Shown: positions 5,537 through 44,018 of the stretch, one piece after another
Numbering within the stretch: position 1 is the first letter of the stretch
Layout of the letters: the number at the start of each line of letters is the position of its first letter
The notes under the pieces: generated by a model
The model's input: only the letters and a program-made list of their open reading frames with translations
Databases searched by the model: none
Told to the model about the DNA's origin: nothing
Assembly (NCBI GenBank): GCA_001724265.1
Contig: MEDY01000247.1
Location: 1-45,432, forward strand
Length of the DNA: 45,432 nucleotides
Direction: 5' to 3'
DNA from: Rhizaria sp. SCN 62-66
Lineage: Eukaryota
Made by a program: the position numbers and the translations under genes

Positions 5537-5790
5537 GTCCTACTGGAGTAGAAGAGTATTACAAGAGTTGAATTGTGAACGGTATTATATGCGTAGACGC
5601 GAGAAAAACGGAAGTGGTGGAAGCGTGAGTGACAGTTGAAGAACACGCGATCTGTAAAGTGCTTAAATAACTTGCAAAAAACCATTTAGTGACAGTACTA
5701 TCAAAATATCAAAAATAACATTAATCTTATATTTCATACAAACAATAACATGTCTATCCATTGTGAGATCAAAGCAAACAATCACCTGCA

Positions 5791-5873
5791 AAGTTGCCGC
5801 TACCTGTTCGGGTCGTCCGCATCTCAACGGCTCTATTCCTAACGGACGGTTTGTGACCAATGGTGACCGTGAG
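5791..5873. promoter_or_regulatory. Putative promoter module in the kinesin-5/CFAP299 divergent spacer
   Basis: AAGTTGCCGC (5791), CATCTCAACGG (5820), GTTTGTGACC (5849) and ATGGTGACCGTGAG (5860). Each block recurs upstream of MAD2 or of the zinc-finger gene. Confidence 0.5.
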
Positions 5874-6072
5874 CCTGGACTGCAGCCTCGATCGACTTGG
5901 ACAAGGATTGAGAAACGGTCCTCAAAGTATGTGCTTTGGATCATGAAAGCTTGTTTCATTTGGGTTGCGAGATTATGATCTGAGTATATGTGAATTCTGT
6001 TCAATTATTCCGCCTTTTATAGCCTATGTCCCCTTGAATTCCTCCCTTTAATCCACCCCCCCTTCTCACAGA

Positions 6073-7077
6073 ATGGACGCTGGCGCGGCCCGCTCACAAG
6101 GCGTGGTCGCTCGCTTCGCGACCTATGAAGAGTACTTGGACTCTCAAACCACGAACGAGGACCTCGAATACTTGCAGGATGAGACCCTTGCGCGCCGTCT
6201 TGTCGAGCTTGGCTATCGTGGCTCCGGCGAGACACTCAAGAGGTTCGTCCAGACTCCAGTCCTCTTTGATTTAATGATCAATAATCGCTGCTTTATTCTG
6301 ACCTCACATCCGCTATGTATCTGTATCGCTTTATTCTTCTTCTTTTTTTCTTCCTTTTCGACCTCTCACAATCTTTAGGGAAGAGTTTGACGCGCGTAAG
6401 AAGGAGATTGAGGCGAACCGTTTCCGCCCTGTCCAGAAGCCTCCTCAGATCATCTGCAGCGCAGGGCTTGACCTCAGCGAGAAGTACGTCATAATAATGC
6501 TTCCTAACGTACAATATATTCATGACTCTATTGTATGCATCATTTACTTCCTGCCATGCATCTATAACTCCTCTCAACCAGCGACTTTAATACGCTCCTT
6601 CACTTGCTCACATTGACTCGTTTGTACCACCACTTTTCCTTCGTCCCTAGGCCGTTCCTTCGTGCCCTCGCCGAGCGTGAGCAGTTTGTGCGCGCGGGCA
6701 AGCTGACGACGATCATCTTTCTGCGCGACTACAACTCTAAGGGCCAGGAGGTGTCGGGCTACATCGACTATGGACACCGCCTGCAGACCGAGGACTTCCG
6801 TCCCTATTTCGCTGGCAAGAAAAAGCTGCTGCCGCGACCGACTGATCTGAGCTACTACAACTGGGAGACGAGCACGTCAACGTCAAGCTCCTCGCCCAAC
6901 TTCCAAGTCCTGGCTGACGAGGAGCACGGCATTCTGTTTAAGAACCGCCGCGACCGGAAGGTCATCAACGTCGACCCGCGCTCTGAGACGGGCGACAACT
7001 CGGAACGCGTCATGATCGAGACGGAGGAGTTCGAGCAGGTCGTGCTCTATGACCACGTCACGCGCCGCAAGAGCTGA
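6073..7077 (+). CDS. CFAP299: Cilia- and flagella-associated protein 299 (C4orf22/DUF4464 family), 233 aa; exons 6073-6242, 6379-6483, 6651-7077
   Basis: Motifs FATYEEYLDS, LARRLVELGYRGSGETL, PFLRALAERE, GQEVSGYIDYGHRL and KKLLPRPTDLSYYNW. Two GT-AG introns (GTTCGT..TAG, GTACGT..TAG) join the frames. Stop TGA. Confidence 0.9.
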
Positions 7078-7097
7078 AGGAAGAGACAGAACAAGAT

Positions 7098-7130
7098 TCG
7101 ATCCGTTATGAATCGATCCGTTATGAATCG
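7098..7130. repeat. Tandem duplication, 15 bp x2 (TCGATCCGTTATGAA)
   Basis: Exact direct repeat read from the sequence. Confidence 0.9.
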
Positions 7131-7200
7131 TGCCACCGTGGGGCCAGTCAAAACTGTTAATGATACATAGCCATTTTTTTGTCGCGTTTTGAAAAGATAT

Positions 7201-7240
7201 CTCGTTAACCAGATGAATGTCTCGTTAACCAGATGAATGT
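7201..7240. repeat. Tandem duplication, 20 bp x2 (CTCGTTAACCAGATGAATGT)
   Basis: Exact direct repeat read from the sequence. Confidence 0.9.
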
Positions 7241-7439
7241 ATCATCCATGATGAATTGATTCCTGCATTCTGACACTGAACAAACCGACAATCCATTGAT
7301 TCTAATGATTCCGACAATCTGTTTAGGGATGGATTGATTCACTCGCACACATGAAATGTTAATATGTTTCGGATTGTCTTAGAACGCAACATAACCGATG
7401 CAACATAGCCAATTCTTACAAAAGCAAACACATAAAACA

Positions 7440-7466
7440 TGTTTTGAGAGCTGTTTTGAGAGCTGT
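7440..7466. repeat. Tandem duplication, 12 bp x2 (TGTTTTGAGAGC)
   Basis: Exact direct repeat read from the sequence. Confidence 0.85.
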
Positions 7467-8251
7467 AAGCAAAAAATAGCATTTGTCACTCAAAAGTGGG
7501 ATTGTAAGACACATGAAGACGTAACATTTTTTTATTTCAAGTCATAATGAACATCAAGTGCAAACAAAACAAAGAAATCAATATATTTTGTTTTTATAAT
7601 TTGTAAAAATAAAATTAACATTTTTTCATCACTTTTTAGATAATAAAACAGTGTAAATCATTTAAATAAAAATAAAAATAACATATATATTTTTAATTAA
7701 TAAAGTAGTTTAATTTATTATTTAAAAACTTATACATGCAGACATACTGTTAATTTGTGTCAAGATAATTCCCAGATTTTGTCAACAATCATTCAACTAA
7801 GCATTCATAATAAGACGCAATAAAAATAACTATATGAATAAAAGATTTTTGTGCATTTATTTTGCTCAAAAATAATTGTAATAGTAGATTGTATACATTT
7901 ACGTACAAAACAATATTTATTTATTTAGCTCAATTTTATTTGATATATTATTGCTTAAAATTTATTAACCAATATTTTGACCCTTGTTTTCTTGGTAAAA
8001 ATATTACAGACTCAGACATTGTTAGACGAAGACGGCAACGTGCTCTCCACAATCACTAGCGCAAGACAAACTCCGTTGAACAGTTTATCAACCATTTATT
8101 GCGATTTACCAGGCTATCTATGCATGCATTGTTTAATTATATGCATGATTTCACATCTTATTCAGCTGTATTTGGCTCGCATAAGCAGGCGTCCCACAGA
8201 CAGTCCGCGTGGTTGAGCTTCCACTTTTGCTTGCCGGACACCTTGTACAAC

Positions 8252-10858
8252 ATGTCCACAAGTGCAACTATAGGTCACCTCGCGTGCAGCGACCCGGAGG
8301 CTTGCGATCTTGACGTTTCAACATGCAATTCGCGATCCGCACTTTCTATTGCTCGTGCATTTTCCCGAATCGACACGGACGGAGATGGTCGTGTTGCACG
8401 CAGGGACCTGATCGCAGCGCTTCGTACGAACGCTACTGTGCGCCAGTTCCTCTCGCTGTGCGGCCCGCGTGTGCGTCGCGCGGCAAACATTAACGCGACT
8501 CCGCGCGCAGTTCTGGACCTTTTCTCGGCCGTCGACACGGACGACACGCGCGTTTGGACGCTGCCTAAATTCCAAGCTTTCTTTGAGCCACGTTATGCCG
8601 GGCCCGACTCGGCGCTGCACCTTGCGCCCCCGCGTCATTTTTCGCTCATGGCTTGTGGCTACACCGCTGGCTTTGGTGCGCCACCTCGTCTTGCTGCCAG
8701 CTCCAACAGTGCGCCCTCGGCAGGCGCTCTCGCGCGCGATAGTAACATTAGTAGCAACAGCAACGTGAGCGCTATCGACAATGACATCAACAGCAACAAC
8801 AACAGTAGCGGCAATGCCGCAGACATTTCCATGCCGGATCCGGGCGTGGCGGCGCAGACGTGTCCCTTTGCACGCTGCACCGACGCGGAGCCGCGCTGCT
8901 GGCGCGCCGACTCGCTGCGCTGCTGCGACGCGCTGCACGGTCCCGACGCCGCCGCGCTGTCCGCCGCCTGCGCGCCGCTCTTCGTCTTCCCGCACGCAGA
9001 CGCCGCCCGCGGCGCCGCGCTCTTTGCTCCCGCGCCCGCGCCTGCTGCTGCGGCTGCGGCTGCGGCCGCGCCCGTGCTGGCGGCCGGCGTGGCGGCGTGT
9101 TGCCCCGTGCACGCAGCGACGACGGGCGAGCTGCCGCTGCCGATTGTCTTCTGCCGCCATACGGAGGCGTGGCTGCGCGCGGGGCTCCGTCTCGACGGCC
9201 CCTCCACCGCGGACCCTGACCCCGACTCTGACAGCCACAGCGACGGCGGTGGTGACAGAGACGACGGCGCACGGGTTCAAGCACTGACAGAGGCTGGAGC
9301 TGAAGCAGAGACTGAGGCTGAGGCGCTGGATCCCCCGTTTGTAGCGCCGGAGCCGTCGCAGTTGGCGCTGCTGCGCGGCTACTCGATGCCTTATCCCGCG
9401 CCGTACCCTATGCTCGACGACGATGACGATGATGGGAGCGGGAGCAATGTCATGGGTGATGGTGACGACGATAACGGCGATGGTGACGACAACACTGATG
9501 ACGACGACAATGACAAAGACGATAATGATGATAATGACGAAGGCACGGGTGGAAGGCGTCCCCAGATCAAGCGCTCAAACTCAAGCTCGAAACCCCGCAG
9601 CGCTCGCACGCGCACTCGCGCGCCCAGGCAGCCCAAATCCGAGACTGCGGCCGCCTCCGGTGTGACGGGCTGCTACGCGGCCACCATCACGGGCCCGCTG
9701 CTGGACTGGACCGCCGTGGCCGCGTACTTTGCCGCGATCTCAGTGCCTGACAATGCTGCGCCCGCACCGAAGTCTGCGCCTGCAGTGTCCGAGTCAGCGG
9801 CCACCGCTCAAGGGCTGTCCTTGGCGCTACCCGGGGAACTGCATCAGCAGCCACGGTCGCAGACGCAGGCGACGCCGCGGCCGGCGGTGGTTGTGCGGCC
9901 GCGGCTGCCGCGCACGAGCGACGACTCGCAGAGCGGCGACGACGACGGCGGGGACCGCAGCGGCGACGAGGAGCCCTTCTCGCCCAGCTGCTTCCTCTCG
10001 CCGCCGCCGCCCGCCAGCGCCGCCGCCGCCGCCGCCGCCGCCGCCGGTGCCACCGGCTCCGCCTCCGGCTCCGCCTCCGGCTTCGGCCCCGCCTTCCGCT
10101 TCGCGCCTTCGCCCGTAAGCTCTGTCTCGGGCGCGGTGTCGGTGACAGCTGCTGCAGCCGGCGCTGCGGCGCCCTCACTGGTGTCTCCGGCGCTGCCGCT
10201 GGCGCTGGTAGTGAACCTGACGGAGCTTCACTCGCTGCACGACGCGGCGCGGCTGCGCGCGGCCGCGGGGCTGGGCTACGCGTGGTGCCCCGTGCCCGAT
10301 TACCGCCCGCCCTCGCTTGCGCAGTGCCACTGGCTCGCCGCACTCGCCGCGCTGTGCCGCCGCGCGGGCGCCGCGGTTGCCTTCCACTGCGCCGCGGGCC
10401 GCGGCCGCACGGGCGTGGCGCTGGCCGCGGCCGCCGCGCTCGCCGCGCACCTGGAGGGCCGCCCCGCGGGGCTGCGCGCGGGCGCCGCCGTGGCCGCCGT
10501 GCGCGCGCAGCGGCCGCTGTCGGTCGAGACCGAGGCGCAGGAGCGCGTCGTCGACGCCTATGCGCGGCTGCTCGCGCGCTGCGGCCGCCGCCGCGACGCC
10601 GCGCTGCGCAGGGCCCTGCGCAGAGAGGGCGCCGACCAGGACTCGGGCGCCGCGAGCCTCGCGGCCGCCTCGGTGCCGTGCCGCTGCGGCCTGCCTGCGC
10701 AGCTGCACTGCACGGCCACCGCCGCCGCGTTCGCCGCGGCCGCGGCCGCCGACGTGCGGGCCGCGACGGCCGAGTCCGCCCTTGCGGGGGCTTCGGCCGC
10801 TGCCAGTGTCTCTCCGGCTGCAGGTGGCGTTAAAATGGAGGCTAGTCCGATTTGCTGA
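8252..10858 (+). CDS. EF-hand + dual-specificity phosphatase (DUSP23/VHZ-like), ~868 aa, with long low-complexity insertions
   Basis: EF-hand loop DTDGDGRVARRDL at ~8372 plus a degenerate second loop. Phosphatase elements VVNLTE, VPDYRPP, HCAAGRGRTG (CX5R, 10385-10414) and VRAQRPLSVETEAQ. The start at ATG 8252 is my choice; the ORF is open from 8099. Confidence 0.8.
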   Translation: MSTSATIGHLACSDPEACDLDVSTCNSRSALSIARAFSRIDTDGDGRVARRDLIAALRTNATVRQFLSLCGPRVRRAANINATPRAVLDLFSAVDTDDTRVWTLPKFQAFFEPRYAGPDSALHLAPPRHFSLMACGYTAGFGAPPRLAASSNSAPSAGALARDSNISSNSNVSAIDNDINSNNNSSGNAADISMPDPGVAAQTCPFARCTDAEPRCWRADSLRCCDALHGPDAAALSAACAPLFVFPHADAARGAALFAPAPAPAAAAAAAAAPVLAAGVAACCPVHAATTGELPLPIVFCRHTEAWLRAGLRLDGPSTADPDPDSDSHSDGGGDRDDGARVQALTEAGAEAETEAEALDPPFVAPEPSQLALLRGYSMPYPAPYPMLDDDDDDGSGSNVMGDGDDDNGDGDDNTDDDDNDKDDNDDNDEGTGGRRPQIKRSNSSSKPRSARTRTRAPRQPKSETAAASGVTGCYAATITGPLLDWTAVAAYFAAISVPDNAAPAPKSAPAVSESAATAQGLSLALPGELHQQPRSQTQATPRPAVVVRPRLPRTSDDSQSGDDDGGDRSGDEEPFSPSCFLSPPPPASAAAAAAAAAGATGSASGSASGFGPAFRFAPSPVSSVSGAVSVTAAAAGAAAPSLVSPALPLALVVNLTELHSLHDAARLRAAAGLGYAWCPVPDYRPPSLAQCHWLAALAALCRRAGAAVAFHCAAGRGRTGVALAAAAALAAHLEGRPAGLRAGAAVAAVRAQRPLSVETEAQERVVDAYARLLARCGRRRDAALRRALRREGADQDSGAASLAAASVPCRCGLPAQLHCTATAAAFAAAAAADVRAATAESALAGASAAASVSPAAGGVKMEASPIC

Positions 10859-11404
10859 ACTGCTGATGTTGTTTAACACAAGCGGATTCCAATGTTGTGT
10901 GAAGTTTTGAACGCATGTCGTGTCATATCGATTACTTGACGACGGTGTGTTTACTTAGACTTGTTACATAGAAAATGATTTTTAGCGATTTCTTTTTGAA
11001 TACAGATAACGATTTTTTTCTCGCATTATGTATTCCGTTTGTATCATGTCACGTCCACATTTTTGCCGAGTTCTATGTTTTACTTTTCAATTCACAGCTG
11101 TACGAACAATGTCAACTATTATGTGTCTCATTCACTTCAAAACACAACTTAAAACAATCTCACCAGCTTAGGCACACAGCATCTATCCTCTGCATGCTGC
11201 GCTTAGTCACGTGTTTTCAATCTGTGCGCACTGCTCATATGCTTGCGCGAGTTCACGATTAGTCACCGGTCGCTGTGTGCCCGCCAGTCTTCTCCCGCGG
11301 CTCAGTCGCGCTGCCGCATCTCTGCATCACTGCACTGCTGCGTTGCTGCGTCGCCGCGCCGCTGCATTGTTATGTTGCTCAACAGAGCCAGCGCTGCCTT
11401 GCGC

Positions 11405-12917
11405 TTACTCGTGGGTGCTCTTGTCGAGCTTGGCGAGAATAGAGCGCTGCTCCTCAGGGGTGAACTCGGCCAGCCCCTGGAGCTTGGTCCAGCCGTCCGT
11501 CTCGCGGTGGAAGAGCTGCGCCACCGTCCGGTACAGGCAGCCCAGGTGGCGCCAGCGGCGGTTGCTGCGCACGCGCACGCCCAGCCGGGGCTCGCCCGCG
11601 GCGATGGGCTCGAAGCAGTCGGCGCAGAGCGCGACGGCGCCCGCCGCCAGCTCGGGCTGCCGCGCCACCACGACCTCGAACCCGGCCTCGGGCTCGCCCG
11701 CCGCCTGCGCGCCCGCGGACGCGAACGTGGGCGGGATAATGCCCGCGGCGTGCGCCGCGTCCGTCATCGCCGCGCCGGGGGCCGCGCCAGTGACAGTGGC
11801 CGCGGCAGCGTTGGGGTCGGACGGGACGATGGGCGCAGCCGCGGCGGCGGCGGCCGCGGTGGCCGCCACGGCGGCGTCCAGCACTGGGTTCGACAGCTTG
11901 AAGTCGGCCAGGTACGCCTGCTGGTCCGCGGGCGCGATCGACTCGAAGCCCCTGTGTCGTGCACATGTGAAGATGACAGCAAGTGTCAGTGAGGTGAGTG
12001 CGAGTGTAAGCGTAAGTGTCAATGTTTGTGTTCAGCAAAGTAGGTTTGATTCGTTATCAGTGAGAGCATTGCGTGCGTATGTGCGTGTGCGCGCGTAGAG
12101 CAAAAATAGTGTTTTGACTAAATGTTGATTTTGTGGAAGGCGACTTGAGCGATATACAGACAGTTGTTCGATGCCGTGTCACGACCGCTGCTGCGACGTA
12201 CTCGATGTAGGCTGGCTCGCCATAGGTGGTGCAGAGGTCAGCCTTAAGGCTGGGCAGCAGGCACGCGGCGTGGTAGTGCGAAATGTTGCCCGCAGGCGAG
12301 ATGTGGGTCACGCGCGGGCGGTTGATCGATACCACCAGGTCACACTGGGGCAGAGACAGAAACACAGAATGATAGTGCAAAGCAGCAGAGAGAAAACAGT
12401 GAGTACATATGCAAAGATTAATAGAAGATATGGCATATATTTAGTTTGTTTCTTGCGTAAACATGCCACTTATAACTTCGCATGATATTTGAAAATGAGA
12501 AGATGTTTCATCGCAGCAACAACGTACGCTCTGGCAGCGGCTGTTGCGCGCAGCATAGTCAATGGAGAAGCGGTGACGCGGCTTAACCTCGGTTGCAGGC
12601 ACGGCGGGGCGCACTTCCCACTTCTTGATGGGCGTGGCGGCCTTGTCTTTGCTGGTCTCCTTGCCGTGGTGACCGTGGGCGCTGCCCTTGCCTGTGCCAG
12701 CGCCAGCGTTGTTGATGAGCAGATCCTCCTTCTGGTCGCCCTCGCTCGCGCCCGCGCGCCCCTTGTGCTTAAGGTGCGCATGCGAGGTAGCAGCAGTTGT
12801 GTCTTCGTGCTCGCTTTCACTGGTCTCGCCGTCCTTGCGGGTGCTGCTGCGGCGGCGGTTCGTCGGGCCAGCGTCGGTGGCCGTCTTGGTGCGGGCTGAC
12901 TTAGCGCGGGGAGGCAT
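11405..12917 (-). CDS. Protein with two PARP-type (CX2C...HX2C) zinc fingers, 359 aa; exons 12917-12528, 12344-12202, 11951-11405
   Basis: Splicing at two GTACGT..CAG introns gives FSIDYAARNSRCQS|CDL...HYHAACL...IE|GFESIAPADQ. The second finger reads LCADCFEPI...PRLG...WRHLGCL...LQGLAEFTPEEQ. Stop TAA. Confidence 0.75.
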
Positions 12918-13242
12918 CTAAAAAAAGGAGGAAACAGATCTAACAGGCATGTCAGGATACAAAAACGCAGTGATTGTCCAATCAAAACGTCGAGTTACGA
13001 GAAGCTAGCAAGAGTAGTCTTGAATTCAGTCTGAGATGTGACTTGAAGTCAAGTGAACATCAAAGGATCAGATCTTGGGAAATCAACGTTGGTTTCAACT
13101 TAAATATTGCATTAAAAGCTATGCTTCACTGAGTTTTAAAAATAATTTGCTAATGTAAATCTTAAGCACGCAGTTGCATTGTTGCATCACGGAGTATTAG
13201 TCGCGGTTTAAGCTTTAAATGAAGTGACCTGCCATAATGCTC

Positions 13243-13275
13243 AAGTTGCCGCCAACAAACCATGGTGACTGTGAG
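13243..13275. promoter_or_regulatory. Putative promoter module upstream of the zinc-finger gene
   Basis: AAGTTGCCGC (13243) and ATGGTGACTGTGAG (13262) match 5791 exactly and 5860 with one mismatch, in the same order and orientation. Confidence 0.45.
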
Positions 13276-13684
13276 AAACTCACATCATCACTATCAACGT
13301 TCATACTCTTCAAATATACATAACATTCGGTTGGCACGTAAAGAATCGGTCTTGTGGTGTAATGAAAATGGGAATGTGTATAATATTTAGTCGAACGAGT
13401 CGGTGTTCTGTTTGTACATACACCACTGCGATCGCGAAGTCAGTCAGCAGCAGATGTGCGCTTCTAGAACTTTGTAGAAAACACGAGCCGCCCGGCGTGC
13501 CATGCACCGGGCCTACACGCGCCCACTGGCCAATCGGCCTCATATCTTATTAGCAAACATCCATTTGTTCCGGACAGCAAAGGTTAGTAACCACTCTTTC
13601 TGCAGACAGTCATACTCATCCGCAACAGCAAGTCAGTCGTTCTGTCACTAGCGGCGGTCGTTAGTCTGCTCCGTGCGTGCGCGC

Positions 13685-15187
13685 TCAGAGGTCGTCGTCG
13701 AGGGCCTTGTAGGTGACCGCGGTGGCAACGGAATGGATCTTGGTGCTGAAAGAGCGCAGGCGCACCTGCTGCGTCTTGCCCTGCACCAGCTTCGGCGACG
13801 ACTCCTCCCACTGTCGCGCGACAGCAACAGCACCCGCGATAGGGATAGCAACAGAAAAAGGCAGCACAAGGCGAGCGAAGCGGACAAAGACGGGGCAGAG
13901 CGGGAGGCGTAAATCGACAAGGTGTGGTTTGCAGTAGAGAGAAAAGAACGGAATTTTTTTTAGCGATGTGAGATATGAGCGTGGGTGCAAATTTATCAAT
14001 TGCAGGCAGAAACATAATTGGAATATCTAGTATCAACGTCAAGCAATTAATACCAATAATCAAAGCGCCGCGACTGCGCCACTCCGACTGCAGTGGCACT
14101 GGCTGGAGCTGTCTGTCGCGCGCACAGGGCGGAGGGCGGCGCAACGCGGGGCGCAGCGCGGCGCGGGGAGCGTGCGGGGACGTACCTCGGCGGGCGTGTC
14201 GGCGTCGTCTTTGGTGTAGACGATGAGGTCGAACGTGCAGCTCGACTCGAGTAGCGGCAGGTATGTCTGCGAGGCAGTGATTTGCCTGAGCGAAACGTAA
14301 ACCAAGGCGAGTGAACGAGCTATAGATGTGAGTTAAGCCAAATAAAGAATCATTGAAAGCAAATATAGCAAGAAAATCAAGGTGAAGTCAGATTGTACAA
14401 TGCGTCGATTAAATCCTAGCGCAGCGCAGCGTCGCGCGACGGACCTGATGATGGCGGCGATCTCCTTCTGGATGTCTGCGGGGCTTTTCTCGCGCGCGAC
14501 GCCCGTGTCGACGGCCTCCTGGTCCGTGCCCACATCAAACTCCCAACGCTCCTGCGCCTCGCCCGTCTGCTGGTCCTCGATCACCAGCACCAGCTTGCGC
14601 ACCTTGCCCGCCGTGAGCCAATCTGAGTGCAAATGCACGGTTATGAAAAATAAAATAATATGGGTTATTACAGTATCGAATGAAATTAAGAAAGAGGTGA
14701 ACAATAAAGTATATATAAAGTAGGTGTTCTAAAACAATTCAACAGGAACTTGTTATACGCGATGATTTCAACGAGATTTCTTTGTTTCATCAGGGACCGT
14801 ACCGCAAATCTGGCGCAGCGCCTGTTTGAGGTAGGCTGAGACGCCCTCGTCGGTGAGGATCTGCATCTGGAGGCCGTATTTCTTCACAACCTTGAACGAG
14901 TCAGGGTCGAAGAGGCCGCGCTGATAGAGAATGCTGTTGATGCTATAGCCTGCGCGTGCGGGACGGCGCAGCGCAGCGCGGAGCGGGGCAGGCAGGCGTG
15001 GCAGGGTTGACGGGGGTGAAAGAGTGAGGTTCGGAGGAGGTAAGCTTAAAGAGTTGGAGAGATATGGCACAGGAACAAAAATAAGATAAGTTTGGTAGTC
15101 GTACGTACCAAAAAACTCGGCGACAATCTGTGCAGAGCCGCGCAGGGTGACGACGCTCGTCGGCTTGATGGAGGTCTTGGTCGCCAT
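13685..15187 (-). CDS. MAD2: Spindle assembly checkpoint protein MAD2 (HORMA domain), 209 aa; exons 15187-15109, 14949-14803, 14622-14445, 14285-14186, 13810-13685
   Basis: Motifs TLRGSAQIVAEFF, YSINSILYQRG, ERWEFD, IQKEIAAIIRQITASQTYLPLL, TFDLIVYT, WEES and QQVRLRSFSTKIH. Four GT-AG introns restore one frame. Stop TGA. Confidence 0.95.
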
Positions 15188-15371
15188 GTGAGACCGGGGA
15201 ACTCTGTAATAGAAAAATATCAATACAAACAAAGGTTTCAGTAAGTCTTAAAAGATGAACAAACAGATGTGCTCACATCATTTTACATATCTCCCCTAAA
15301 GAACCACTGCTGGTCTCATAATTGCACAGTATCCATGAGAAGTTTGCTGTTTCGGGCTCTCAGCTTCTGGC

Positions 15372-15430
15372 CATCTCAACGGGTATCAGCCTGTTTGTGA
15401 CCGAAAAAAGTAAATGATTTATTCGTGACC
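15372..15430. promoter_or_regulatory. Putative promoter module in the MAD2/TPMT divergent spacer
   Basis: CATCTCAACGG (15372), GTTTGTGACC (15393) and GTGACC (15425) are identical to blocks at 5820-5868, in the same order. Confidence 0.5.
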
Positions 15431-15710
15431 ACAAACGAAAAATCGAGGATTTGAGTCCCTCAAATTCGGAATTGAAAATCATTGATTGTGCTTGAAGATG
15501 ATCGTGAATGCTGGTATAAACGTGTTGGCGGTGTACAATACGAACACTTTATTTGTATCAATTTCAATATCTGTTAGAAATGCGATATGGCCCAAATTTG
15601 ACGCAGTGATATGACTCAGCTTGACTCAACGTGACAAAATGCATCCCCTCTGCCCGCTAACCAACTTCATGCTTTCTGGGGTTCTCTTTCATCATTTTCC
15701 GCGCAGAATT

Positions 15711-16968
15711 ATGTCTACTTAGGATAATGTGTCTTACTGGCAGGATCGCTGGGACAAGGTGCGTTAGAACATCTATATTGATACCATCTTAACCCATATT
15801 TCACTCACACTCTCAACACTGCGAAGCTCTGCTTCTTGCCCACCTTATTTCACCACTGTTCTTCTTCTCTATGCTCCGGACATCTTTTTTCTCACTTTTA
15901 CGCATGCCCCGATTTCCACACATTTGCTTATACCTCTCCGCATTTGCGTCCGTATTCACGCCACAGAGCCAGACGGGCTGGCATCTGTCGGACCTGAACC
16001 CCACGATCGTGAAGCACCGCGAGGCGTGGCTGGGCGGGCGCAAGGGGCTGCGCGTCTTCTTCCCCCTCTGCGGCAAGACCCAGGACATGGTCCACTTTGC
16101 GCGCGACGGCTACTCCGTCCTGGGATTCGAGGCCGTCGATCAGGCCATCGGTACGCATTACAAGATAGAGAGTCAGCAATCACAGTGCGGAACTAGTTCT
16201 CTTCATAGACACTCACAAGAAATGCTGTTCTTTGGTATTGGTTCATTGTTTTTCATTCCCTATTTTCTAGCCGACTTTGGCAGCGAGAACGGCTTCGCGA
16301 TGCGCGCGCGCCACCCCCTGTCGGTGCCGCCGGCGCTGCGCCCGTTCAAGGTGCTCGACGCTGTGCCCTGCACTGAGGCGGCCGCGGCGCGCGCGCGCGA
16401 GGCCGGCTGCGACATCACGGTGCTGCAGGGCGACCTGTTTGCGCTGCCCACGCTGCCGGGCCCCGGCGAGGCCGTCGATGCGGCCGCCGAGGCCGAGCTG
16501 AGCGCCGCGGGCATCACAGGCACCGTCCAGGCCGCCTTCGACCGCGGCTCCTTCGTCGCGATCCGCCCCGAGAAGCGCAAGCACTACGAGAAGGTACGCA
16601 GCAGGCGCATTTAACGCATTATCTGCGTGAGATGCCGGTGTGTTTGTGCCTTTATTATTTTTAACAAAGTTAGCTCACATATGCATATATTCATATTGTT
16701 CTCATTCTCTCTCTCCCAGATCATGTACACGCTGTTGGCGCCCGGCGCGCGGACGCTGTTGTCGTACGTGACGTACGACCAGAGCGAGATGCCTGGCGCG
16801 CCCTGGTCCGTCTCGCAGGCCGACCTCACCGAGACTTTCTCTGCAGATCGCTGGGAGCTCGAGTTCGTGGAGGAGGCCGCTCCCGGTCAGACCTCGCGCT
16901 TCCTCAAGCCCAACGGCGGCCAGCTCACATGGATTCGCGACGGCGTTGCCTTCATCACGCGCAAGTAA
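15711..16968 (+). CDS. TPMT: Thiopurine S-methyltransferase family protein; exons 15711-15758, 15967-16150, 16271-16593, 16720-16968; in-frame TAG at codon 4 (15720-15722), so the start is uncertain
   Basis: Motifs YWQDRWDK|SQTGWH, RVFFPLCGKTQDM, GYSVLGFE, LQGDLF, FDRGSFVAIRPEKRKHY and PGAPWSV. Three GT-AG introns. Stop TAA. Confidence 0.85.
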
Positions 16969-17418
16969 GCTTGCCAGTAAGACAGCTTACAGACAAGAAG
17001 AAGTGTGTTTTAATTAATACTGTTTTGGTAACGTGTATTGTTTGTTATAGGATGCACATAATTTATTAATGTGAGTGATCAGGAATAACAGGGAATCAAG
17101 TCCGTTCGTTTCGTAAGACTGACGATTAATATATGTATTCAGTGACGCATTCTCGTGTCTTGACGTGACTGACGTTTGGCTTGACCCTTCTCCCCCAAAA
17201 ACGCAACAAAGATCGCAGTTGTTGTTCCATAAAAGATATAGTTTACGTACGAGATTCTCATAATAAAAAGCGTTTTAAGATTCAGTTACAGTTTCACAAA
17301 TCGATTTCAATACAATAAATAGTGCAGTCACATCGAGATATGCTACACACAGACAGTCTCCGTCACACAAGTTTGAGTCAAGACATTTTGGCTTTTACTA
17401 CAACATAGTTAGCTCCGC

Positions 17419-20106: not shown

Positions 20107-20626
20107 GTCTGAGATGTATGGCAAAACGGAAAAGGCAGGGAGTGTTAAAAGAATTTTAAAGATAAAACTCACAATAAAGTCAGGATGTACCATCAAATGT
20201 TCTATTGACGACTTTATTTAAGCGCTGCTTGCGTTAAAAAGTTGACACTTCTTGGCTCGCCACGAGCCTCGAAATTTTATGTTCTGCCAAGTCGACACGA
20301 GGCTGTGCACAAATTGAGATTGCCAGCGTTTATGTCTCGACTATGAGAGGTGTAATCTTGCTTGTACTTTATAAACTATAGCTAGCTATTAGGAATTTTA
20401 ATTCAAACCTAGATTGACGTTTAATAACTCGAAATATCTTAGACTTTTTGACCAAGTTCAAGTCTCACACCTGTGCATCATGCCTCTTCATTTTTCCGCA
20501 CTCAACACAGCTTTTTATTTTCTAGGCATTAAAAAGAGTACAGGACAATTGAAATCAAATTGACCATCTAGCGAGCGCAGTCGATCCCGCAATCTTCAAC
20601 TCTGCGCCTTGCTGCGCCTCTCTGAA

Positions 20627-31039: not shown

Positions 31040-31070
<31 letters not shown>

Positions 31071-33536
31071 GGCCACCCCAGCAGCAGCAGCAGCCGCAGC
31101 AGCAGCAACAGCAGACGCCATCGTCGATGGTGATGGCGCCAGGCATGGGCTGGGCCGGGCCCAAGCTCGAGCCCACGGGCGCCGACGCACAAGCACAGCA
31201 ACAGCCGCAGCAACAACAGCCGATGCCGCCGATGCAGCAAGCGCAGTTCACCCAGGTGCAGCCCCAACAGCAACCGCAGCAGCAGCCGCTGCAACACCAG
31301 CAGCAGTCCCAATACCAGTACCAGTACTCGCCTGCACCTCAGCAGGCCCAGGTTCAACCGCAGCAGGGGCAGCCCGGCGCGCCTTCGCGCACCAACACTG
31401 TGAACATGGACGCGATGGCCGCCGGCGACGACACGCGCTCGTTGCCGCCGCTGCCGTCCGCCGCTGGCCCGACGACGGCCGCTGGCACGCCCCAGGCGGG
31501 CCCCCGCGCCCATCGTCCCGGGCTCCGCAGGCAACACCGCCGCGGGCTTCGTGCCCTCGCCCTCTGGCTTCGCGCCAGTGGCTGCCCCCGTGCCCACGGT
31601 CACCGCGGCCGGCGACGGCGCGGCCTATCACACTGTATCCGGCGTCCCAGGCGGGCTCGTGGCCGCGCGCGCGCAGCGCAGATCTTCAGGCCACGACGCT
31701 CACTCCTCCACCGCTGCTGCTGCTGCGACCTCCGCCGCGAGCGTCAACGCGATGGCGCACGCGCACAGCCTAACCGTCGGCACTGCGGGCGCCGCAGGGA
31801 TCGCTCTGGGCCTGGGCCTTGGCGCGAGCGCTGGTGGCGCCGCTGGCGGACTGCAGTCGCTCGCACGCGCTCCATTTACTAGTGGGGCCGCCAACGTAGG
31901 CGCTTCTATCGGCCCTAGCGCCGCAGCTGGTCCCGGAAGCGTCTTGGGAGCCTTCCCGCCCCCGTCACCGCCGCCCGTCTCTGCCGCTGCTGTTGCCGCC
32001 GCGGGCGCCGGCATTGCGCCCGGCAGCGCGCCCGCCGCGACTGCGCCTACGTCTGCTGCTGCGACCGCGGCTGTGCCTGCTGCTGCGCTCGCGCACGGCT
32101 CGTTCGCGTTTGAGACGAGTTTGCAGTCGCTGCCGCCGGGACTGGCCGCGGCTGCGCCGCCGCGCCTGGTGACGACGGGCACGCCCGGCGCGACGACGGC
32201 GCTGCCCACGGCGCTGCCCACCGCCCCCGGGGGCCTCGGCCTTGGCGGACTCGGCATGGGGCTCGGCGGTGGCCTCAGCTCTGGACTCGCCAGCGGCGGC
32301 CTCAACGCCGGACTGGGGCTCGGCGGCATGATGCCCGGGCTGACGGGCGCGGGCGGCGGCGCCGGTGCGGGCGCTGGCACGGACACGCTGCAGCGGCTGC
32401 TGCAGATGGCGCAGAGCATGGAGGCGCAGTCCACTGCGCTTGCCGCGGCCGCGCGCACCAAATCTGACTGGCATTCGACCGCAAGCTCTACGCCACGTTT
32501 CGCTTCCAACACGCTCAGCGCCCAATTTAACAGCAGCAGTACCAACAACCTAGCTGGCGCCGTTCCTGCTGGCGGCAACACAAGCATGTTCTCTGCAACC
32601 GCGCCGATCACCGCGCTGCCCAGCTCAGCCGTGGCGCCGGCCCCGCTCACGCTGCCCGGCAACGCCGCCGTTGCTATTCCAGGTAGCTTTAACCCCAACG
32701 GCAGCGCCAACGTGGCTGTGGGCGCGTCGGTCACGCCGGTGCTCACGCCCGCGCTCACGCCCGCCGGCTCTACCACGGGCGGCAACCACGGCGGCTTCGG
32801 GCCCGCGTTAAGCGCCAGCGCCACTGGCGCTGGTGGCGTGGCCGCTGTGCTGCCTGGGGTCAGTCTCGGTCTCGGTTTCGGATCAGGACAGCTGCATCAA
32901 GCGACGCCGGGGCAAGTGCAAGCCCTCAGCGCCTACGCATCAGCGCCGCCTGGAACCGTGCCAACTGCCGTCGCCCCTGCCGCCCCTGCTGCTGCACCTG
33001 CTGCTCCGCTTGCCGGAGCTCCGTTCACCGGCACCCCCAACGCCGGCGCACCGCTGTACAGGTCGACGCCCCCATCGCCCGCGACGCTGCCGATGTCGGT
33101 GCCGGGCCCGGGGCTTGGACCGGGCTCCGCTTCCGCGCCCACACACGGCCACAGCATGACGCTGGGCATGATGGGCCACTCACTGACCTCGGCTAACACG
33201 GGCAACAGCGTCGCTGCCGCGCCCGCAATGCTCTCGCCGCCACTGGCGCCGTCCTCCGCGACAGGCAGTGCGGCGCCGACGGCGGGCGCGGGGCCGGGCG
33301 CCGCGGGCGCGGGCTCGGCCGATCATTTGCTGGCAACGACAGCGCTGCGCAGAAACAGCCTCTCCAGCCCCGGCCCGGCGGCGTCGGCCGCGGCAATGGC
33401 TGCGACGCAGCCCACTGTCGGTTACGCGGCGAGCACTGCGGGTGGGGACTCGTCACTACCGGCTGGGGCAAACGCCATCGCGACCTACGCGTCGCCGGCC
33501 AGAGCGTCCGTCGACGGAGTGGTGGAGCAACACTAA
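20627..33536 (+). CDS. Giant low-complexity protein (~4300 aa if the single extra base near 31500 is removed); polyQ, His-Gly, Asp-rich and Ala/Gly tracts, short coiled coil ~30000-30400
   Basis: Two overlapping ORFs, 20609-31882 and 31551-33536. The amino-acid style moves to the other frame at GGGCCCCC (31498-31505). No intron is needed. No conserved domain recognised. Stop TAA. Confidence 0.7.
28480..28880 (+). repeat. Coding CAG/CAA-rich poly-glutamine region (a second one lies at ~30540-31370)
   Basis: Mixed CAG/CAA runs in frame within the giant protein. Confidence 0.85.
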
Positions 33537-33897: not shown

Positions 33898-34535
33898 AGG
33901 ACGGCGACGAAATGGACAGTCACTGTCACCAAACAAAAAAATCGATCAAAATACAATTTTGATGAGGTGATTAACAAATTTATCCACTAAACGTCGTTAT
34001 GATGGCGAAGTGTGCCAACTCGTAGGGTTTTGTTGTCTTGTCACCCATGGCCACCAGTCGGAGTTAGGCCAGTCAGAGAGGAGTCCATGAGGATCAAAAT
34101 TAAGCCGCTTCCAGTGAGCTCTCCTTCGGAGACCCGAAAAATGGCGTAATTGCGGGACTGCTGGCTTCGGGGAAGTCATAGATTTTATTTTATTAAACTT
34201 CAGGGGCAATATATTTCCTGTGCCGCGGGGCTTTTGTGCCAGAGACGATTATGTCTCTCCAACGCCTAGGGTCTGGACTTGGTTGGCCTTAAGCTTTGTG
34301 TTCCTTCCCCCTCTTCCCAACAGCCTACCTGGGTCCTGTCGGCCGCCACTGGAGTCACCGCTTCTTCTTTATGATTCCCATGTACTTGGTCTTCTCCATC
34401 TCTGCGACTGCCGCGTTATATCTTAACCTCATCCTGCCCTGCCCGCCCTTGTTTCACCCCTCTCGCCCTTCTGGTATCCCCTCCCCTTTGCCCAACCCCT
34501 TTCGACTGCCCCGCGCTGGTTCCTGTGCTCCAGCG

Positions 34536-37500: not shown

Positions 37501-38199
37501 GGCTGCATGGGCCGAGGGCTGTGCCTCGACGGCGCGTGTCAGTGCCGCGACGCCTGGTTCGGCACCGACTGCGAGAAGGGCTGCCCCGACGACTGCACGG
37601 GCCGCGGCGCGTGCGTCGAGGACGACCAGGGGCGGCCGCAGTGCCTGTGCAAGGCGCCCTTTACGGGCCCCGCCTGCAAGGTTGGCATGTGCCCCGGCGC
37701 CGAGCTCACCCCCGAGGGCAAGCAGGTCTCGTGCCGCGGCCACGGCCAGTGCGACTCAGCCAACGCACAGTGCCAGTGCGACCTGGGCTACGTGGCGCCC
37801 GATTGCGGCGTCTTCACCCGCGCCGAGTGCTCGCGCTCGTGCCGCGTGCGCTGCCGCGACGGCGAGGGCGGCGCCTTCCCTGTCGTGAACCAGCTCACCA
37901 ATCTCACCGAGGTGCTCACGGCCGCGCAGTGCGTCCGCCACTGCGAGGCCAAGTGCGCGCTTGTCGATCCCGTCGCTGTGGAGGCTGCCGCCAAGGCTGC
38001 TGCTGAGGCTGCCGCCAAGGTCGCCGCCGCTGAGGCTGCTGCGAAGGCTGCTGAGGCCGACGCTGCTGCCAAGGCTGCTGCTGCCGCCAAGGCTACGACC
38101 ACGCCTGCTGCTGCTGCTTCTGCGTCCGCCGCGCCCGCTGCTGCCGCCGCCACCGCCGCTGCCGCTGCCATCGCCGCCGCGGGCAAGCCCCAGAAGTGA
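34536..38199 (+). CDS. Secreted tenascin/teneurin-type EGF-repeat protein, 1167 aa; exons 34536-34605, 34766-38199
   Basis: Signal peptide MVRYLLVLVALMTLLALVAA. Roughly 20 or more repeats of the form C..CSGRGxC..GxCxC..G[FWY]xGxDC in two blocks, separated by a helical Ala-rich spacer. One GTACGT..CAG intron. No transmembrane segment seen. Stop TGA. Confidence 0.85.
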
Positions 38200-38305
38200 A
38201 CACTGACGGACTGGCAGTGAGTGGAGTGAGTAAGGTCAGCAAGCACGCTTTGTTATGGTGTGCCGAGCTGTTTTGTGGTGCATCTCGCACGCGACGAGAT
38301 AGCTC

Positions 38306-38341
<36 letters not shown>
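38306..38341. repeat. (GA)n microsatellite downstream of the EGF-repeat gene
   Basis: Near-perfect GA dinucleotide run. Confidence 0.9.
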
Positions 38342-38346
<5 letters not shown>

Positions 38347-39648
38347 GGGATGATGAGGATCACTAACGATGCGGGCCATGGCGCCTGGCGCCACACGCGT
38401 GCCGATCTATCTGCTCACATGCCTGCCTGTCTGACAATGCCTGCTTCGTGTTGTTTCTGTGATGTCACGATGCAATTTGCTGCGAGACGGGCGCTTCGGC
38501 TCTTGAGAAGCACGTATAATACCTAATACACAATATCTACACATAATCAATCAATTAATTATAAACTCTGTATTACGTATATCTTACTCTGATACGCTTT
38601 GCAGCAATTGTGTCAAATCAATAGATTCACTTCATGGTTATACATTGCGTATGTAATTGTCCGCGTTAAAAGTTTGAGTGTTTTTGTTTATTTTTTTAAT
38701 GTTTAGTTTGGTTTCGTTAGTTTTGGAATTTTACTATGTTTTCCTTTGTAAAAGTTTGTTGCATAATTTAGTGAATCAATCGGTGCTGCTTTCGCGGAGT
38801 CTAGACGAATGTGTTAGGTTCAACAGAGACGATAACGCTCACGCCTCCAGTAGTACTCGCACACTCGAGGCAGCAGGGCATGCTGGTGTGTTTAGCAGAC
38901 CAACTCACTCATCGCTGAAGACGACTGCTCTTGCCTTTGCTCGTATCGCTCATGCTTGTTGCTGTTGATGTCGCGAAGTGGTGTAGTGAAGTAGAGACGA
39001 CCGGGGTGACTATTGTAGTTATTACGAAGTGGCGACAAAAGCGACTCGACTGCTTGGCTCGACTTCTACTGGCGCAGGCGAAGTGATTGATTGACCGAGC
39101 AGAGCGCTGTGAGTGGCAGTGTACGCTGGACAGTTTAGCGAACACGAAATGATTGAACAAAAAAAAAAGATTATTTACAAATTAAATTGTCATAAAACGA
39201 ACGAGAAGAATTAAGACTAGGTGCTATCGATATGTAGCATGCTGTAACACACAGCACGACACAATACAGACGGCATTAAAGCTGATTCTCACCCTCTATC
39301 TCCTATATAGCGCGTGGCCGACTTCCTCGCCTTCCCGCAGTCACGCGGACCGTTGCACAGTCACGCAGGATCCTGCTGCTCACAATCAGTCCGCCAGGCA
39401 GTTCATTTGTTGTTAAGCTCATAGCTCGCGTCACACAGCGCACAGTCCCAACTCACACAATCGATTGTTCTGTTTCGCTGTCCACACCAGTTCACACAGC
39501 TCGGGGTTTGTTGGCACGGTCTAGACAGACATGTTCACCGATTCTTACCCCTCGCGGCTCACCCACTCAGCGCTGCTCGCTCCTTGCAAGCAACCGTCAG
39601 CGGATACATCGTCGTCCTCTCCTCCCCAGACCATCAGCCGTCAGCCGC

Positions 39649-42600: not shown

Positions 42601-43212
42601 GTCGGCGTTGCCATTGCCGGGCACAGGGCCCTGCTGCTGCTGCTGCTGCTGCTGGTTGGTGTTGCCGTTGCCGTTGTTGTTGAACTGGGGCCCGGGGCCG
42701 TAGTTGTTGTAGTAGCCGTGGCCGTGGCCGTGGGGGCCGGCGCGGCGCGGGCCGGCGGGGCCGCCGTGGCCGTGGGGCCCGTACGCCGGGTACCCGCCGT
42801 TGCCGTTGCTGCCGTTGGTGGGGTGAGGCGGCGGAGGGGCGAAGCCGCCGGGGCCCGGAGGCGCAAAGCCGGGCCCCTGCTGCCCCTGCGGGGGCTGCTG
42901 GCCGTTGTAGTAGCCGCCGTGCGGGGGCCCGCGGCCGGGCGGCGCGAAACCAGGCCCTTGCTGCTGCTGCTGCTGCTGCTGCTGATGCTGTGGGGCAAAG
43001 CCCTGGGGCGAGAAGACGGCAGACTTGGCGTTGAGCGCAGCCTTGGTCGCAGCCGCGGCGGCGGCGGCGTCGTCGTCGCTCGGCCGCGACTGCTGCTGCT
43101 GCTCTTGCTGGGAGGCGGCAGCGGCGGCGGCGGCGGGGCCCTTGCCTGCGGCCGTAGGGCCGGGGCTGGGGGCGGGTTTGGAGCTCTTGGCGGCGGCGCG
43201 GGGTGAGCTCAT
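39649..43212 (-). CDS. La-related RNA-binding protein, LARP6-like (PAM2-like motif, G/Y/N/H-rich region, split La motif, RRM, C-terminal LSA/SUZ-C-like motif), 1187 aa
   Basis: LNAKSAVFSP (PAM2-like, 43035-43006). La motif pieces VEGWFSHANMAADAEL and LLAALRESQRLRLCADDTLIECRNP. RRM TVYADGF...FAVFGEVRSV...AVLVEF. RHARGPQPGKGF near the C-terminus. Stop TGA. Confidence 0.7.
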   Translation of the reverse strand: MSSPRAAAKSSKPAPSPGPTAAGKGPAAAAAAASQQEQQQQSRPSDDDAAAAAAATKAALNAKSAVFSPQGFAPQHQQQQQQQQQGPGFAPPGRGPPHGGYYNGQQPPQGQQGPGFAPPGPGGFAPPPPHPTNGSNGNGGYPAYGPHGHGGPAGPRRAGPHGHGHGYYNNYGPGPQFNNNGNGNTNQQQQQQQQGPVPGNGNADGNGGAAAPAETSNGDGDGANGNIGPNGYAPGPHQGSPGPHGPPGPHGHPGYGSGYGLPFNGPYGGGRYGPHGHGYGGYGPRSHGNSYNGPYGGPPGGYGHGPNGGGNNANNAGHSHGDGGGSVSPNGSGAGNAAAEGAGAGDGDGDGSTAAGYAPTTASSSSSSSSSASGYYDHNGYAHGHGHGHQGGQRPPRHQYHGPGGYGSGAYGGGYGGGYGGGGGGGYGASPGGPHGHGHGHAHSHHGHHGHHGHGGPDGWQLPQSHLRSVARAVRLCVEGWFSHANMAADAELRAHMAEHAAEPALVGAGSTSGNSDGLGPVEGVASPTASASASASGEPRIGVVTVGWVLARLNAVALAKQAQAQAAAAAAATASASESGATHNAISGDSGSSSSSSCELTPASPTSPASPSTAPSAAAPGTASASTASSSSSSSSAVGNGNGTGTGTTTLPASALMLPVPVQLPQLLAALRESQRLRLCADDTLIECRNPVRDVKCTVYADGFAANTAVEALRERFAVFGEVRSVVPCLHVKAPAPQHSGYAETGLQPGQPVTAVLVEFAKKKDAFRAVAVATANAKAKPSAGGSTAAAAAAAAAAAAAAAAAASASADESSEAPSPATPGGGSASAQPLVDPAVFKGMHIMPMYAYLPMVKDKKAATPANASGSTAAAAASGTPVAAAAAASASANASSLPLSPPALGGSRGAERSASATSTGNGNGNGASSERGWGAGSGRLRPQARVNNGNKDGAAGKEAVASVAMAAPPSYASIVAGTAKPEPAAVPASVPTVLAVSALAASALAASAPASSAPAASAPGVTMSAILSGKSRPVASAAAPAAPKSRPQQQQQQRQASPSPSPSPVPLPLPLPSPSPSLSAASASFNGGGASARLPLPAASASASASGGPASGLLSARSPSFRPASVLATETSALSSPLVRSLKAQAEARVQVRHARGPQPGKGFMQCFGIGSEERPVAWDPKVPYGQMLFQ

Positions 43213-44018
43213 CGTTCGGGCGCGCGCGGTCCGGGGAAGAAGGCGCGACTCTGCGGAGCAAGGGGAACAGGGAAGAAGCGGGGCGAAAGAGCGGAGTGAG
43301 CACGGGCGCGCGGAACGGAGGCCAGACTCAGAGACATCATCGCGATTCGCTGGGCGGCGACGGTCAGAAGCCGTTGGGGCCGCGTGCGGCGAGAAACAGG
43401 CACGCGGTGCGGCGTGTCACATCGGGAGAAAAACATTTAGCAACGAAGAGCATTATACGGCATTATTGCTACGCGATTAGAGGGAATCGAAGCGTTGGGT
43501 CGAGCCGACACCCGATTTCGAGGTGTGTCCAGCGTCACCGCGGACGACGCACTCACCAATACATTCCCACCTAATTCCGCACACTTCATGAAAACAACTG
43601 CGTAGTTCGATTCCAACTGCAACTAAGGCAGCTGTAAAAACTATTCCTGGTCTTTCCACGGAAGGCATACTCGCGAAACGAGCTCGGTTTTGAATGCGTC
43701 TGGGTCAGAACCGGCTTGACTTTCCGAGCCACGAGCCGCTGGACCTCTCTCTCTGCGAGTCCACTCGCGACTGTGAGCAAGTCAGCCGATTAAGGACCTC
43801 AAGAGGCATTTCGTAGGTGAGACGAGTGCCTTAAGACGTGAAATTTTGATATGTTATGAATTTTAGAGGATTTGCTATGATACTCGAACCAAATGTGTAC
43901 TGACGGTCATGAGACTGAGTATACCCATGGGTCGTGTGCTTACTCGCGATTCCCCCTCTTCACAGCCTCTTTCCCTCCTTCACTGCCCCCAGCGAGTCCC
44001 CCGAGCCTTTCTGCCCCC

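Follow-up and report, generated by a model that had tools for sequence, protein, structure and literature searches.

The trans-splicing of spliced leaders (SLTS) is established in euglenozoans, dinoflagellates, perkinsids, cryptomonads and many animal groups, and in Rhizaria it is established in Paulinella (PMC6053224, PMC5619915 and PMC9311404, cited here and below from their available parts). In Paulinella micropora the calmodulin gene carries an AG acceptor upstream of its ATG, and the complementary DNA (cDNA) has a 33-nucleotide (nt) leader that is absent from the gene (PMC6053224). The leaders of this genus are added at canonical AG acceptors, ~6-20% of genes give spliced-leader (SL) transcripts, and the genome consists of ~60-76% repeats (PMC9311404). 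In the available parts of PMC6053224 and PMC9311404, rhizarian SLTS is documented for photosynthetic Paulinella only and is linked to the expression of transferred genes. Here we describe candidate splice acceptors, each a pyrimidine-rich stretch ending in YAG shortly upstream of an ATG, at the gene starts of contig MEDY01000247.1 (assembly GCA_001724265.1, deposited as Rhizaria sp. SCN 62-66). The whole stretch of 45,432 nt that was analysed is called the window. An earlier note, made from the sequence of the window, had proposed that such sites stand in front of every start codon and that they lack partner donors because a leader is trans-spliced onto most mRNAs. The genes are referred to by the names used in that note.

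Acceptor-like sites at the gene starts

The candidate sites of 11 genes are collected in Table 1. All 11 upstream strings quoted in the earlier note were found on the sense strand at the AG-to-ATG distances it gave, and the candidate sites are YAG in 11/11. An automatic criterion, a YAG with 65% pyrimidine or more in the 30 nt before it, was applied blind to all positions, with positions in the 3'-side spacers on both strands as controls; these control positions are autocorrelated, so that binomial P values are nominal. Of the 11 genes, 6 have such a site no more than 6 nt from the ATG (1.1% of control positions), 7 have it within 16 nt (2.3%), 9 within 40 nt (4.4%) and 10 within 101 nt (9.2%). 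With a weight matrix trained on the 13 internal acceptors alone, 7 of the 11 candidates reach the 94th percentile or higher among 967 spacer AGs and the other four rank at the 71st-87th; no candidate falls outside the range that the internal acceptors give in leave-one-out scoring. The sense-strand pyrimidine fraction before the ATGs is 0.69, 0.66 and 0.63 in the first three 30-nt bins, compared with 0.44-0.49 in the 90 nt after stops. Additionally, upstream ATGs number 32 in the 1,650 nt before the candidate AGs and none in the 279 nt between AG and start (5.4 expected); in part this zone is bound to be free of ATGs, since any open in-frame ATG in it would itself have counted as the start.

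Branch-like motifs had also been pointed out in the earlier note, including a CTAAC at 15657 that is indeed present. The general form CTNAC occurs 28-100 nt upstream of the AG in 8 of the 11 genes, as against 3.8 in shuffles, 3 of 1000 of which reach 8; none was found in this interval for CFAP299 or for the EGF-repeat gene. The form typical of the internal introns does not follow suit, as CTCAC precedes 3 of the 11 candidate AGs, which is not above shuffles, compared with 12 of the 13 internal introns.

The tracts could also be explained without any splicing. The sense-strand pyrimidine patch would then be a core-promoter or 5' untranslated region (5'UTR) feature, transcription would begin inside the patch or slightly upstream of it and give short colinear 5'UTRs, and the AG would belong to the start context or to an initiator-like YA step. 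A high pyrimidine content by itself accounts for the larger part of both the AG-free length and the matrix score, CTCAC as the internal branch motif shows no enrichment, and in only 5 of the 11 genes is the candidate AG the end point of the longest run without purine-purine steps. Such a patch does not, however, explain the YAG at every site or the enrichment of CTNAC at branch-point distance. The 3' flanks of the genes are not pyrimidine-rich whereas the internal introns are, and, even granting the composition of the tract, 6 of the 11 genes would be unlikely to have an AG so close to the ATG (within 6 nt; ~0.01, a rough estimate rather than a computed value). We consider an unspliced patch rather unlikely as the general explanation.

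Chance, aided by a reader's choice of the best-looking AG in each spacer, is very improbable and largely excluded. The blind criterion recovers the same sites, with 1-4% of controls set against 6-9 of the 11 genes, and the same layout is present in a relative. A scan of metagenomes with the kinesin N-terminus led to a genomic JGI contig (L001) of lower G+C, the kinesin of which is 67% identical. At the two clear gene starts of this contig, pyrimidine-rich stretches of 55-70 nt without an AG lead to a final YAG, 12 nt before the ATG of the kinesin gene and 28 nt before that of an open reading frame (ORF) of 180 amino acids; thus the feature belongs to the lineage and not to the window alone. 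The same scan with the kinesin N-terminus gave a 63% transcript-like contig (L002) from an AT-rich organism and no transcript of the window's own species. Chance is favoured by the two distant sites (86 and 101 nt), which are indistinguishable from it, by the number of genes (11), and by the start codons of the orphan, giant and LARP6-like genes, which are not validated. One end of L001 (1-122) is made up of ~30 copies of a TCAC repeat.

The observation of acceptor-like sites is real for about 9 of the 11 genes. The claim that every start codon is preceded by one goes too far: the phosphatase site is the weakest candidate and misses the threshold of 65% pyrimidine, the giant-gene site lies 101 nt out with 7 more AGs between it and the ATG, and the TPMT ATG is not validated. 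In the latter gene, the ATG at 15711 is followed three codons on by an in-frame TAG at 15720-15722 (M-S-T-TAG-D-N-V-S-Y-W-Q-D-R-W-D-K). Conserved N-terminal residues continue in the same frame after the TAG and across the first intron, exon 2 starting at Pfam profile position 14, and therefore this ATG cannot be taken as a validated TPMT start. No in-frame ATG lies between the TAG and the conserved residues, and the window's sequence at this place is the same in a DNA-like sequencing run (X4). The in-frame TAG could itself serve as a second acceptor, ACTTAG ending at 15722. It is possible that an upstream exon or leader is joined at ACTTAG, that the start is non-AUG, that the stop is read through, or that the sequence is in error. 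A leader that donates the AUG would rescue TPMT; it was rejected since such an AUG, by reading of the sequences, would not be in frame with the coding sequences of CFAP299, orphan and EGF.

Table 1. Candidate acceptors, possible cis donors and RNA-confirmed introns of the window. Percentile is the rank of the AG among 967 spacer AGs by the matrix of internal acceptors.
Feature	Position	Strand	AG to ATG (nt)	Percentile	Description
Kinesin-5 upstream element	5537..5645	-			~100 nt pyrimidine-rich, AG-free; CACTCAC 86 nt upstream; ATG at 5536
Kinesin-5 acceptors	CCAG 5544-5543, TAG 5541-5540	-	6 and 3	70.8 (AG at -3)	
CFAP299 upstream element	6010..6072	+	1	97.1	Tract ends CACAG, AG 6070-6071; ATG 6073
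Phosphatase (EF-hand + PTP) candidate	8140..8165	+	86	86.8	ATTCAG, AG 8164-8165; ATG 8252
zf-PARP ('ZnF') upstream element	12918..12955	-	0	94.4	CTGAC 34 nt upstream, pyrimidine tract, TTTTTTTAG; AG 12919-12918 directly adjoins ATG at 12917
MAD2-like (HORMA) upstream element	15188..15250	-	16	83.6	CTTAC 38 nt upstream; ATTACAG, AG 15205-15204; ATG 15187
TPMT upstream element	15640..15706	+	4	99.8	CTAAC 15657-15661; tract ends GCGCAG, AG 15705-15706; ATG 15711
Orphan upstream element	20107..20180	-	2	98.3	62-nt AG-free pyrimidine-rich stretch ends ATCTCAG, AG 20110-20109; CTGAC 71 nt upstream; ATG 20106
Giant-gene candidate	20480..20525	+	101	80.5	TTTTCTAG, AG 20524-20525; CTCAC 58 nt upstream; ATG 20627
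EGF-repeat upstream element	34290..34533	+	2	99.9	At least 156 nt AG-free on the sense strand; ends CTCCAG, AG 34532-34533; ATG 34536
LARP6-like upstream element	43251..43335	-	38	99.5	80-nt AG-free pyrimidine tract, CTCAC 46 nt upstream; CCGCAG, AG 43252-43251; ATG 43212
LAMTOR5 upstream element	43930..43992	+	26	99.6	CTTAC, tract with CACAG, then CCCCAG, AG 43991-43992; ATG 44019
GTATGT, possible weak CFAP299 cis donor	5927..5932	+			Would give a 145-nt 5'UTR intron, a typical length; donor score 3.5, below all 13 internal donors
GTGCGT, possible LARP6-like cis donor	43547..43552	-			~300 nt upstream of acceptor; donor score 8.8
GTGCGG, LAMTOR5 spacer donor	43407	sense strand			612 nt upstream of ATG; donor score 8.8
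RNA-confirmed introns	11952-12201, 12345-12527, 13811-14185, 14286-14444, 16594-16719				Exact GT..AG boundaries

Donors of the internal introns and of the upstream spacers

The splice signals of this organism can be read from the 13 internal introns that were defined in 6 genes. Five of the 13 are confirmed as joints in RNA contigs of runs X1 and X3 (Table 1), and the joints are absent from the DNA-like run X4. The introns are 120-375 nt long with a sense-strand pyrimidine fraction of 0.55-0.76. A recount of their donors agrees with the earlier note in finding GTACG in 10 of 13, and the relaxed form GTNCG is found in all 13. The full donor pattern is G/GTACGT (slash at the exon-intron boundary), with C at +4 and G at +5 in 13/13 (e.g. 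6484-6650 and 16594-16719). The branch-like CTCAC lies mostly 38-75 nt from the 3' end. As read from the sequence, these unusually uniform signals imply long distances from the putative branch point to the AG and possibly a U1 with a 5' end that differs from the usual one.

Donors of this type are missing upstream of the candidate acceptors. The 7,710 nt of sense-strand upstream spacer contain no GTACG, as the earlier note had found by eye, where dinucleotide shuffles give 3.7 +/- 1.9 and reach zero in 12 of 500; the control spacers hold 6 in 7,226 nt. This depletion is mildly significant. In the same spacers and against the same shuffles, GTNCG occurs 17 times (21 expected) and GTNCGT 3 times (5.2 expected). 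Internal-type cis donors in most of the 11 genes would be expected to add about 8 copies of GTACG, and there are none. A donor matrix built from the 13 internal donors, which themselves score 8.5-15.8, gives the best sense-strand site of each upstream spacer a score of 1.9-6.6 in 9 of the 11 and of 8.8 in two, those of LARP6-like and LAMTOR5. The best spacer scores are no higher than those of mononucleotide shuffles or of the antisense strand. Acceptor-like sites without an upstream cis donor, the layout known as the outron, are therefore what the upstream spacers present, save for these two; an organism-type donor upstream of the acceptor is lacking in 9 of the 11 genes and is found for LARP6-like and possibly for LAMTOR5.

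These data bear on the possibility that the sites end cis-spliced 5'UTR introns, in which case a short non-coding first exon would lie in the spacer and the donors would be weaker than, or other than, GTACGT. The weaker donors listed in the earlier note were all located (5806, 5927, 15241 and 43552). The LARP6-like GTGCGT and the LAMTOR5 GTGCGG score within the internal range, so that some cis 5'UTR introns in these spacers are possible. GTNCG lies upstream of the acceptor in 7 of the 11 spacers, and GTAC or GTATGT is found 145-171 nt from the acceptors of CFAP299, kinesin, EGF, giant and TPMT, which would make introns of typical length, at a frequency that we judge to be near chance. On the other side are the high uniformity of the internal donors, the lack of an excess of any donor type in the spacers, and the four spacers (TPMT, giant, EGF and phosphatase) with no GTNCG upstream of the acceptor. 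It would also be unusual for 6 of 11 genes to have a 5'UTR intron ending no more than 6 nt from the ATG. For LARP6-like and perhaps a few other genes a cis intron is plausible; as an account of the whole set it is quite unlikely.

RNA at the gene starts and the favoured reading

The RNA evidence consists of assembled Logan contigs that were aligned to positions 5001-25000, with joints and loose ends taken from the rows listed. Runs X1 and X3 are one sample, X2 is a polyA run with thin cover, and X5 has next to no words in common with the window. X1 and X3 leave the 5' regions of CFAP299, TPMT, orphan and giant without cover, and the thin spacer cover of X2 is uninterpretable since this run also contains a contig consisting only of intron (unspliced RNA or DNA). 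The contig in question, 13828-14185, begins at the first base of MAD2 intron 4 (14185), stops 17 nt before the 3' end of the intron and includes no flanking exon; unspliced RNA, carried-over DNA and a stable excised intron are possible sources.

ZnF is the only gene with deep cover, at a depth of ~39 in both X1 and X3. Its contigs run from the 3' untranslated region (3'UTR, ~11043-11079) through both spliced introns and end at 12919 in X3 or 12917 in X1, and position 12917 is the A of the ZnF ATG, the first base past the predicted acceptor. No contig of X1 or X3 lies between 12920 and 13606, the depth in the 13005-13671 bin being that of MAD2 3' end contigs, and therefore a long colinear 5'UTR or a long cis first exon is unlikely for ZnF. 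For cis introns this means that at a depth of ~39 no upstream exon is joined to the ZnF contig or lies near it, and any first exon there would have to be short.

The X1 contig does not stop cleanly. It has 17 loose letters beyond 12919 which, together with letters 12918-12919, are the reverse complement of 19 loose letters at 11808, and we read them as the adapter of a Nextera-type transposase. At 11808-11816, two contigs of X1 have an overlap of exactly 9 nt, presumably the mark of a transposase cut. If so, the end at 12917 is a library cut and not an RNA end, and the ZnF cDNA must extend at least ~10 nt past 12917. At this 5' end the mRNA could carry a short leader, begin with a short first exon or have a colinear 5'UTR no longer than a few tens of nt. 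The end of cover near 12917 and the ATG-free zone fit an unspliced start within a few tens of nt equally well; transcription starting at the AG itself would be excluded if the ends are transposase cuts.

We favour SLTS as the best single explanation of the sites; it is unproven, and our confidence in it stops just short of even. Under SLTS, the elements made of a pyrimidine tract and YAG would be real 3' splice sites without a cis donor, a short leader from a separate SL RNA would be joined to them, and the mature 5'UTR would consist of the leader and the 0-40 nt between AG and ATG. The anatomy and enrichment of the acceptor-like sites, the absence of internal-type donors upstream, and the colinear RNA that ends at the acceptor of one gene were seen directly; from the sequence we infer both splicing at the candidate sites and a common leader as the partner. 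SLTS accounts for sites at nearly all starts, for their nearness to the ATG, for the lack and mild depletion of donors, for the pattern of upstream ATGs and for the RNA end at ZnF. It is also favoured by Paulinella, a known trans-splicer, being within the same kinesin clade as the window (support 97/95). A mixture of the readings is possible.

A number of observations weigh against SLTS. The shortage of CTCAC, the position of the longest purine-pair-free stretch, the weak phosphatase and giant-gene sites and the internal-grade donors of two spacers have been given above, and the sample of 11 genes is small. The X1 contig of ZnF runs into a library adapter at the acceptor and not into a leader, and the X3 contig simply ends. 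Among the loose-end rows listed, no shared non-genomic leader or loose end was found at the candidate AGs, which also suits an unspliced patch. An SL RNA gene, usually multi-copy, would combine a leader exon with a splice donor and an Sm-type site; the search for an SL RNA or other Rfam family had no match in the 45-kb window, and the tRNA scan was empty as well. The genes alternate in strand with divergent spacers of 520-806 nt, so there are no operons that would call for trans-splicing. The available parts of PMC6053224 and PMC9311404 report that SLTS was not found in Bigelowiella, Plasmodiophora or Reticulomyxa, and that the heterotrophic sister of photosynthetic Paulinella putatively has no SL genes. 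The trans-splicing proposed in the earlier note is thus partly supported, by its donor-less acceptor-like sites and by a ZnF gene without colinear RNA upstream of the predicted acceptor.

No joint of a gene-specific upstream exon to an acceptor is among the 15 joints listed, with little or no RNA over the spacers. A leader might encode additional residues at the N-terminus. A search for such proteins with the ZnF first exon found the genomic form only; the same search for CFAP299 returned the genomic exon form and relatives only. A segment of the minus strand at 17160-17260, with a GTACGT at ~17249, a 6-bp hairpin and an Sm-like run of T5-G, had been read by eye as resembling an SL RNA. It is probably a coincidence, and it was dropped on two grounds: it is located within the zone of the convergent TPMT and orphan 3'UTRs, close to sequence with RNA cover (a TPMT contig extends to 17230), and its putative leader contains an ATG.

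The organism and comparison with known systems

The window is a compact eukaryotic stretch in which exons have 70-80% G+C while spacers and introns are far more A+T-rich, and 12 genes were read in it. Pfam matches were obtained for kinesin-5, the phosphatase (EF-hand and tyrosine phosphatase, PTP), the EGF-repeat gene, TPMT, the MAD2-like gene (HORMA), LAMTOR5, ZnF (zf-PARP) and CFAP299 (DUF4464), in agreement with the names in the earlier note. The orphan, the giant gene and LARP6-like have no Pfam match at E<=0.01, and so the last of these names finds no backing there. Unnamed metagenomic proteins match the kinesin-5 motor with 74% and 68% identity. Among named taxa the highest identity, 61%, is to the cercozoan Mataza sp., and the others reach 51-57%. 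In a maximum likelihood tree of this one gene, built from 29 rows chosen by hand, the window falls within a 13-row clade (97/95) of which the sole named members are Mataza sp. and Paulinella micropora. A place among Cercozoa is therefore probable by this single gene. The sequencing runs that contain window sequence are labelled wastewater or activated sludge, and taken with the kinesin tree these labels indicate that the organism is probably a heterotrophic cercozoan, its placement coming from one gene. A scan of prokaryotic genome contigs found no relative.

The gene order shows no sign of polycistronic units. Three of the four divergent pairs have near-equal ATG-to-ATG spacings of 536 (5537-6072), 523 (15188-15710) and 520 nt (20107-20626), and the fourth has 806 nt. 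No 8-mer is common to 4 and no 9-mer to 3 of the promoter spacers (n=7), and a palindrome-like GTGACC..GGTGAC spotted by eye in these spacers was dropped for that reason. The spacer between CFAP299 and the phosphatase (7080-8000) has ~20% G+C at 7500-8000 and short tandem duplications near 7100-7250 and 7440-7465. Overlapping convergent 3'UTRs are suggested at 10859-11404, as an X2 contig extends from the phosphatase to 11267 and ZnF contigs extend down to 11043-11079. The ORF of the giant gene, from 20627, closes at a TAG at 31880, and another frame that is equally rich in Ala, Pro and Gly is open from 31404 to a TAA at 33534; the overlap at 31404-31880 points to a frameshift, to a short intron that went unrecognised or to a mistake in the assembly. 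A general code in which TAG is a sense codon was rejected. Long standard-code ORFs are without in-frame TAG, and frame 2 of the giant gene ends at a TAG with only the other frame open beyond it.

SLTS is patchy in its distribution, and it is debated whether its origins reflect repeated gains or many losses. In the literature searched, with subscription journals and supplements outside its coverage, no report of SLTS was found for a cercozoan other than Paulinella. The proposal that a heterotrophic wastewater cercozoan outside photosynthetic Paulinella adds an SL to the majority of its mRNAs, at acceptors that frequently lie right next to the start codon, is tentative, and we hold it with a confidence clearly below even. 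If it is true, a known mechanism would gain a new lineage, possibly across far more genes than in Paulinella, and SLTS in Cercozoa would be older and more widespread than thought or would have been regained independently. Near-universal SLTS in a second, heterotrophic cercozoan would also test the link to transferred genes and would add a data point on how easily the mechanism originates. In practice, the acceptor could help gene finders to place start codons in metagenome-derived protist genomes, and the leader would be a handle with which to fish the mRNAs of this organism from sludge metatranscriptomes. If the elements are instead an unspliced promoter or leader feature, they are an ordinary compositional signal.

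Several known arrangements resemble these gene starts. A strand-specific pyrimidine patch just upstream of the coding region recalls the Y patch of plants, a pyrimidine-rich core-promoter element; the elements here differ in that they end in YAG and have a branch-like CTNAC at 28-100 nt. Cis-spliced 5'UTR introns occur in plants, fungi and apicomplexans. They too bring an intron 3' end near the start codon, and their lengths here would match the 120-375 nt of the internal introns, whereas the upstream donor that they require is absent or atypical in 9 of the 11 genes. Acceptor-to-ATG distances are short in nematodes. With the outrons of nematodes, kinetoplastids and euglenids the window shares an unpaired 3' splice site with a pyrimidine tract near the ATG, and upstream ATGs that occur before the acceptor and not after it. 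It differs from them in showing no polycistronic sign and in having common cis introns (13 in 6 genes) with a strict GTACGT donor. The acceptor-first syntax of such starts is a concept cited in PMC9311404. The likeness to Paulinella lies in the phylum, by the kinesin-5 tree, and in the AG acceptor upstream of the ATG. In Paulinella the leader is known and ~6-20% of genes are involved, whereas here there are candidate acceptors only, with the signal in 9-11 of the 11 genes of a compact window.

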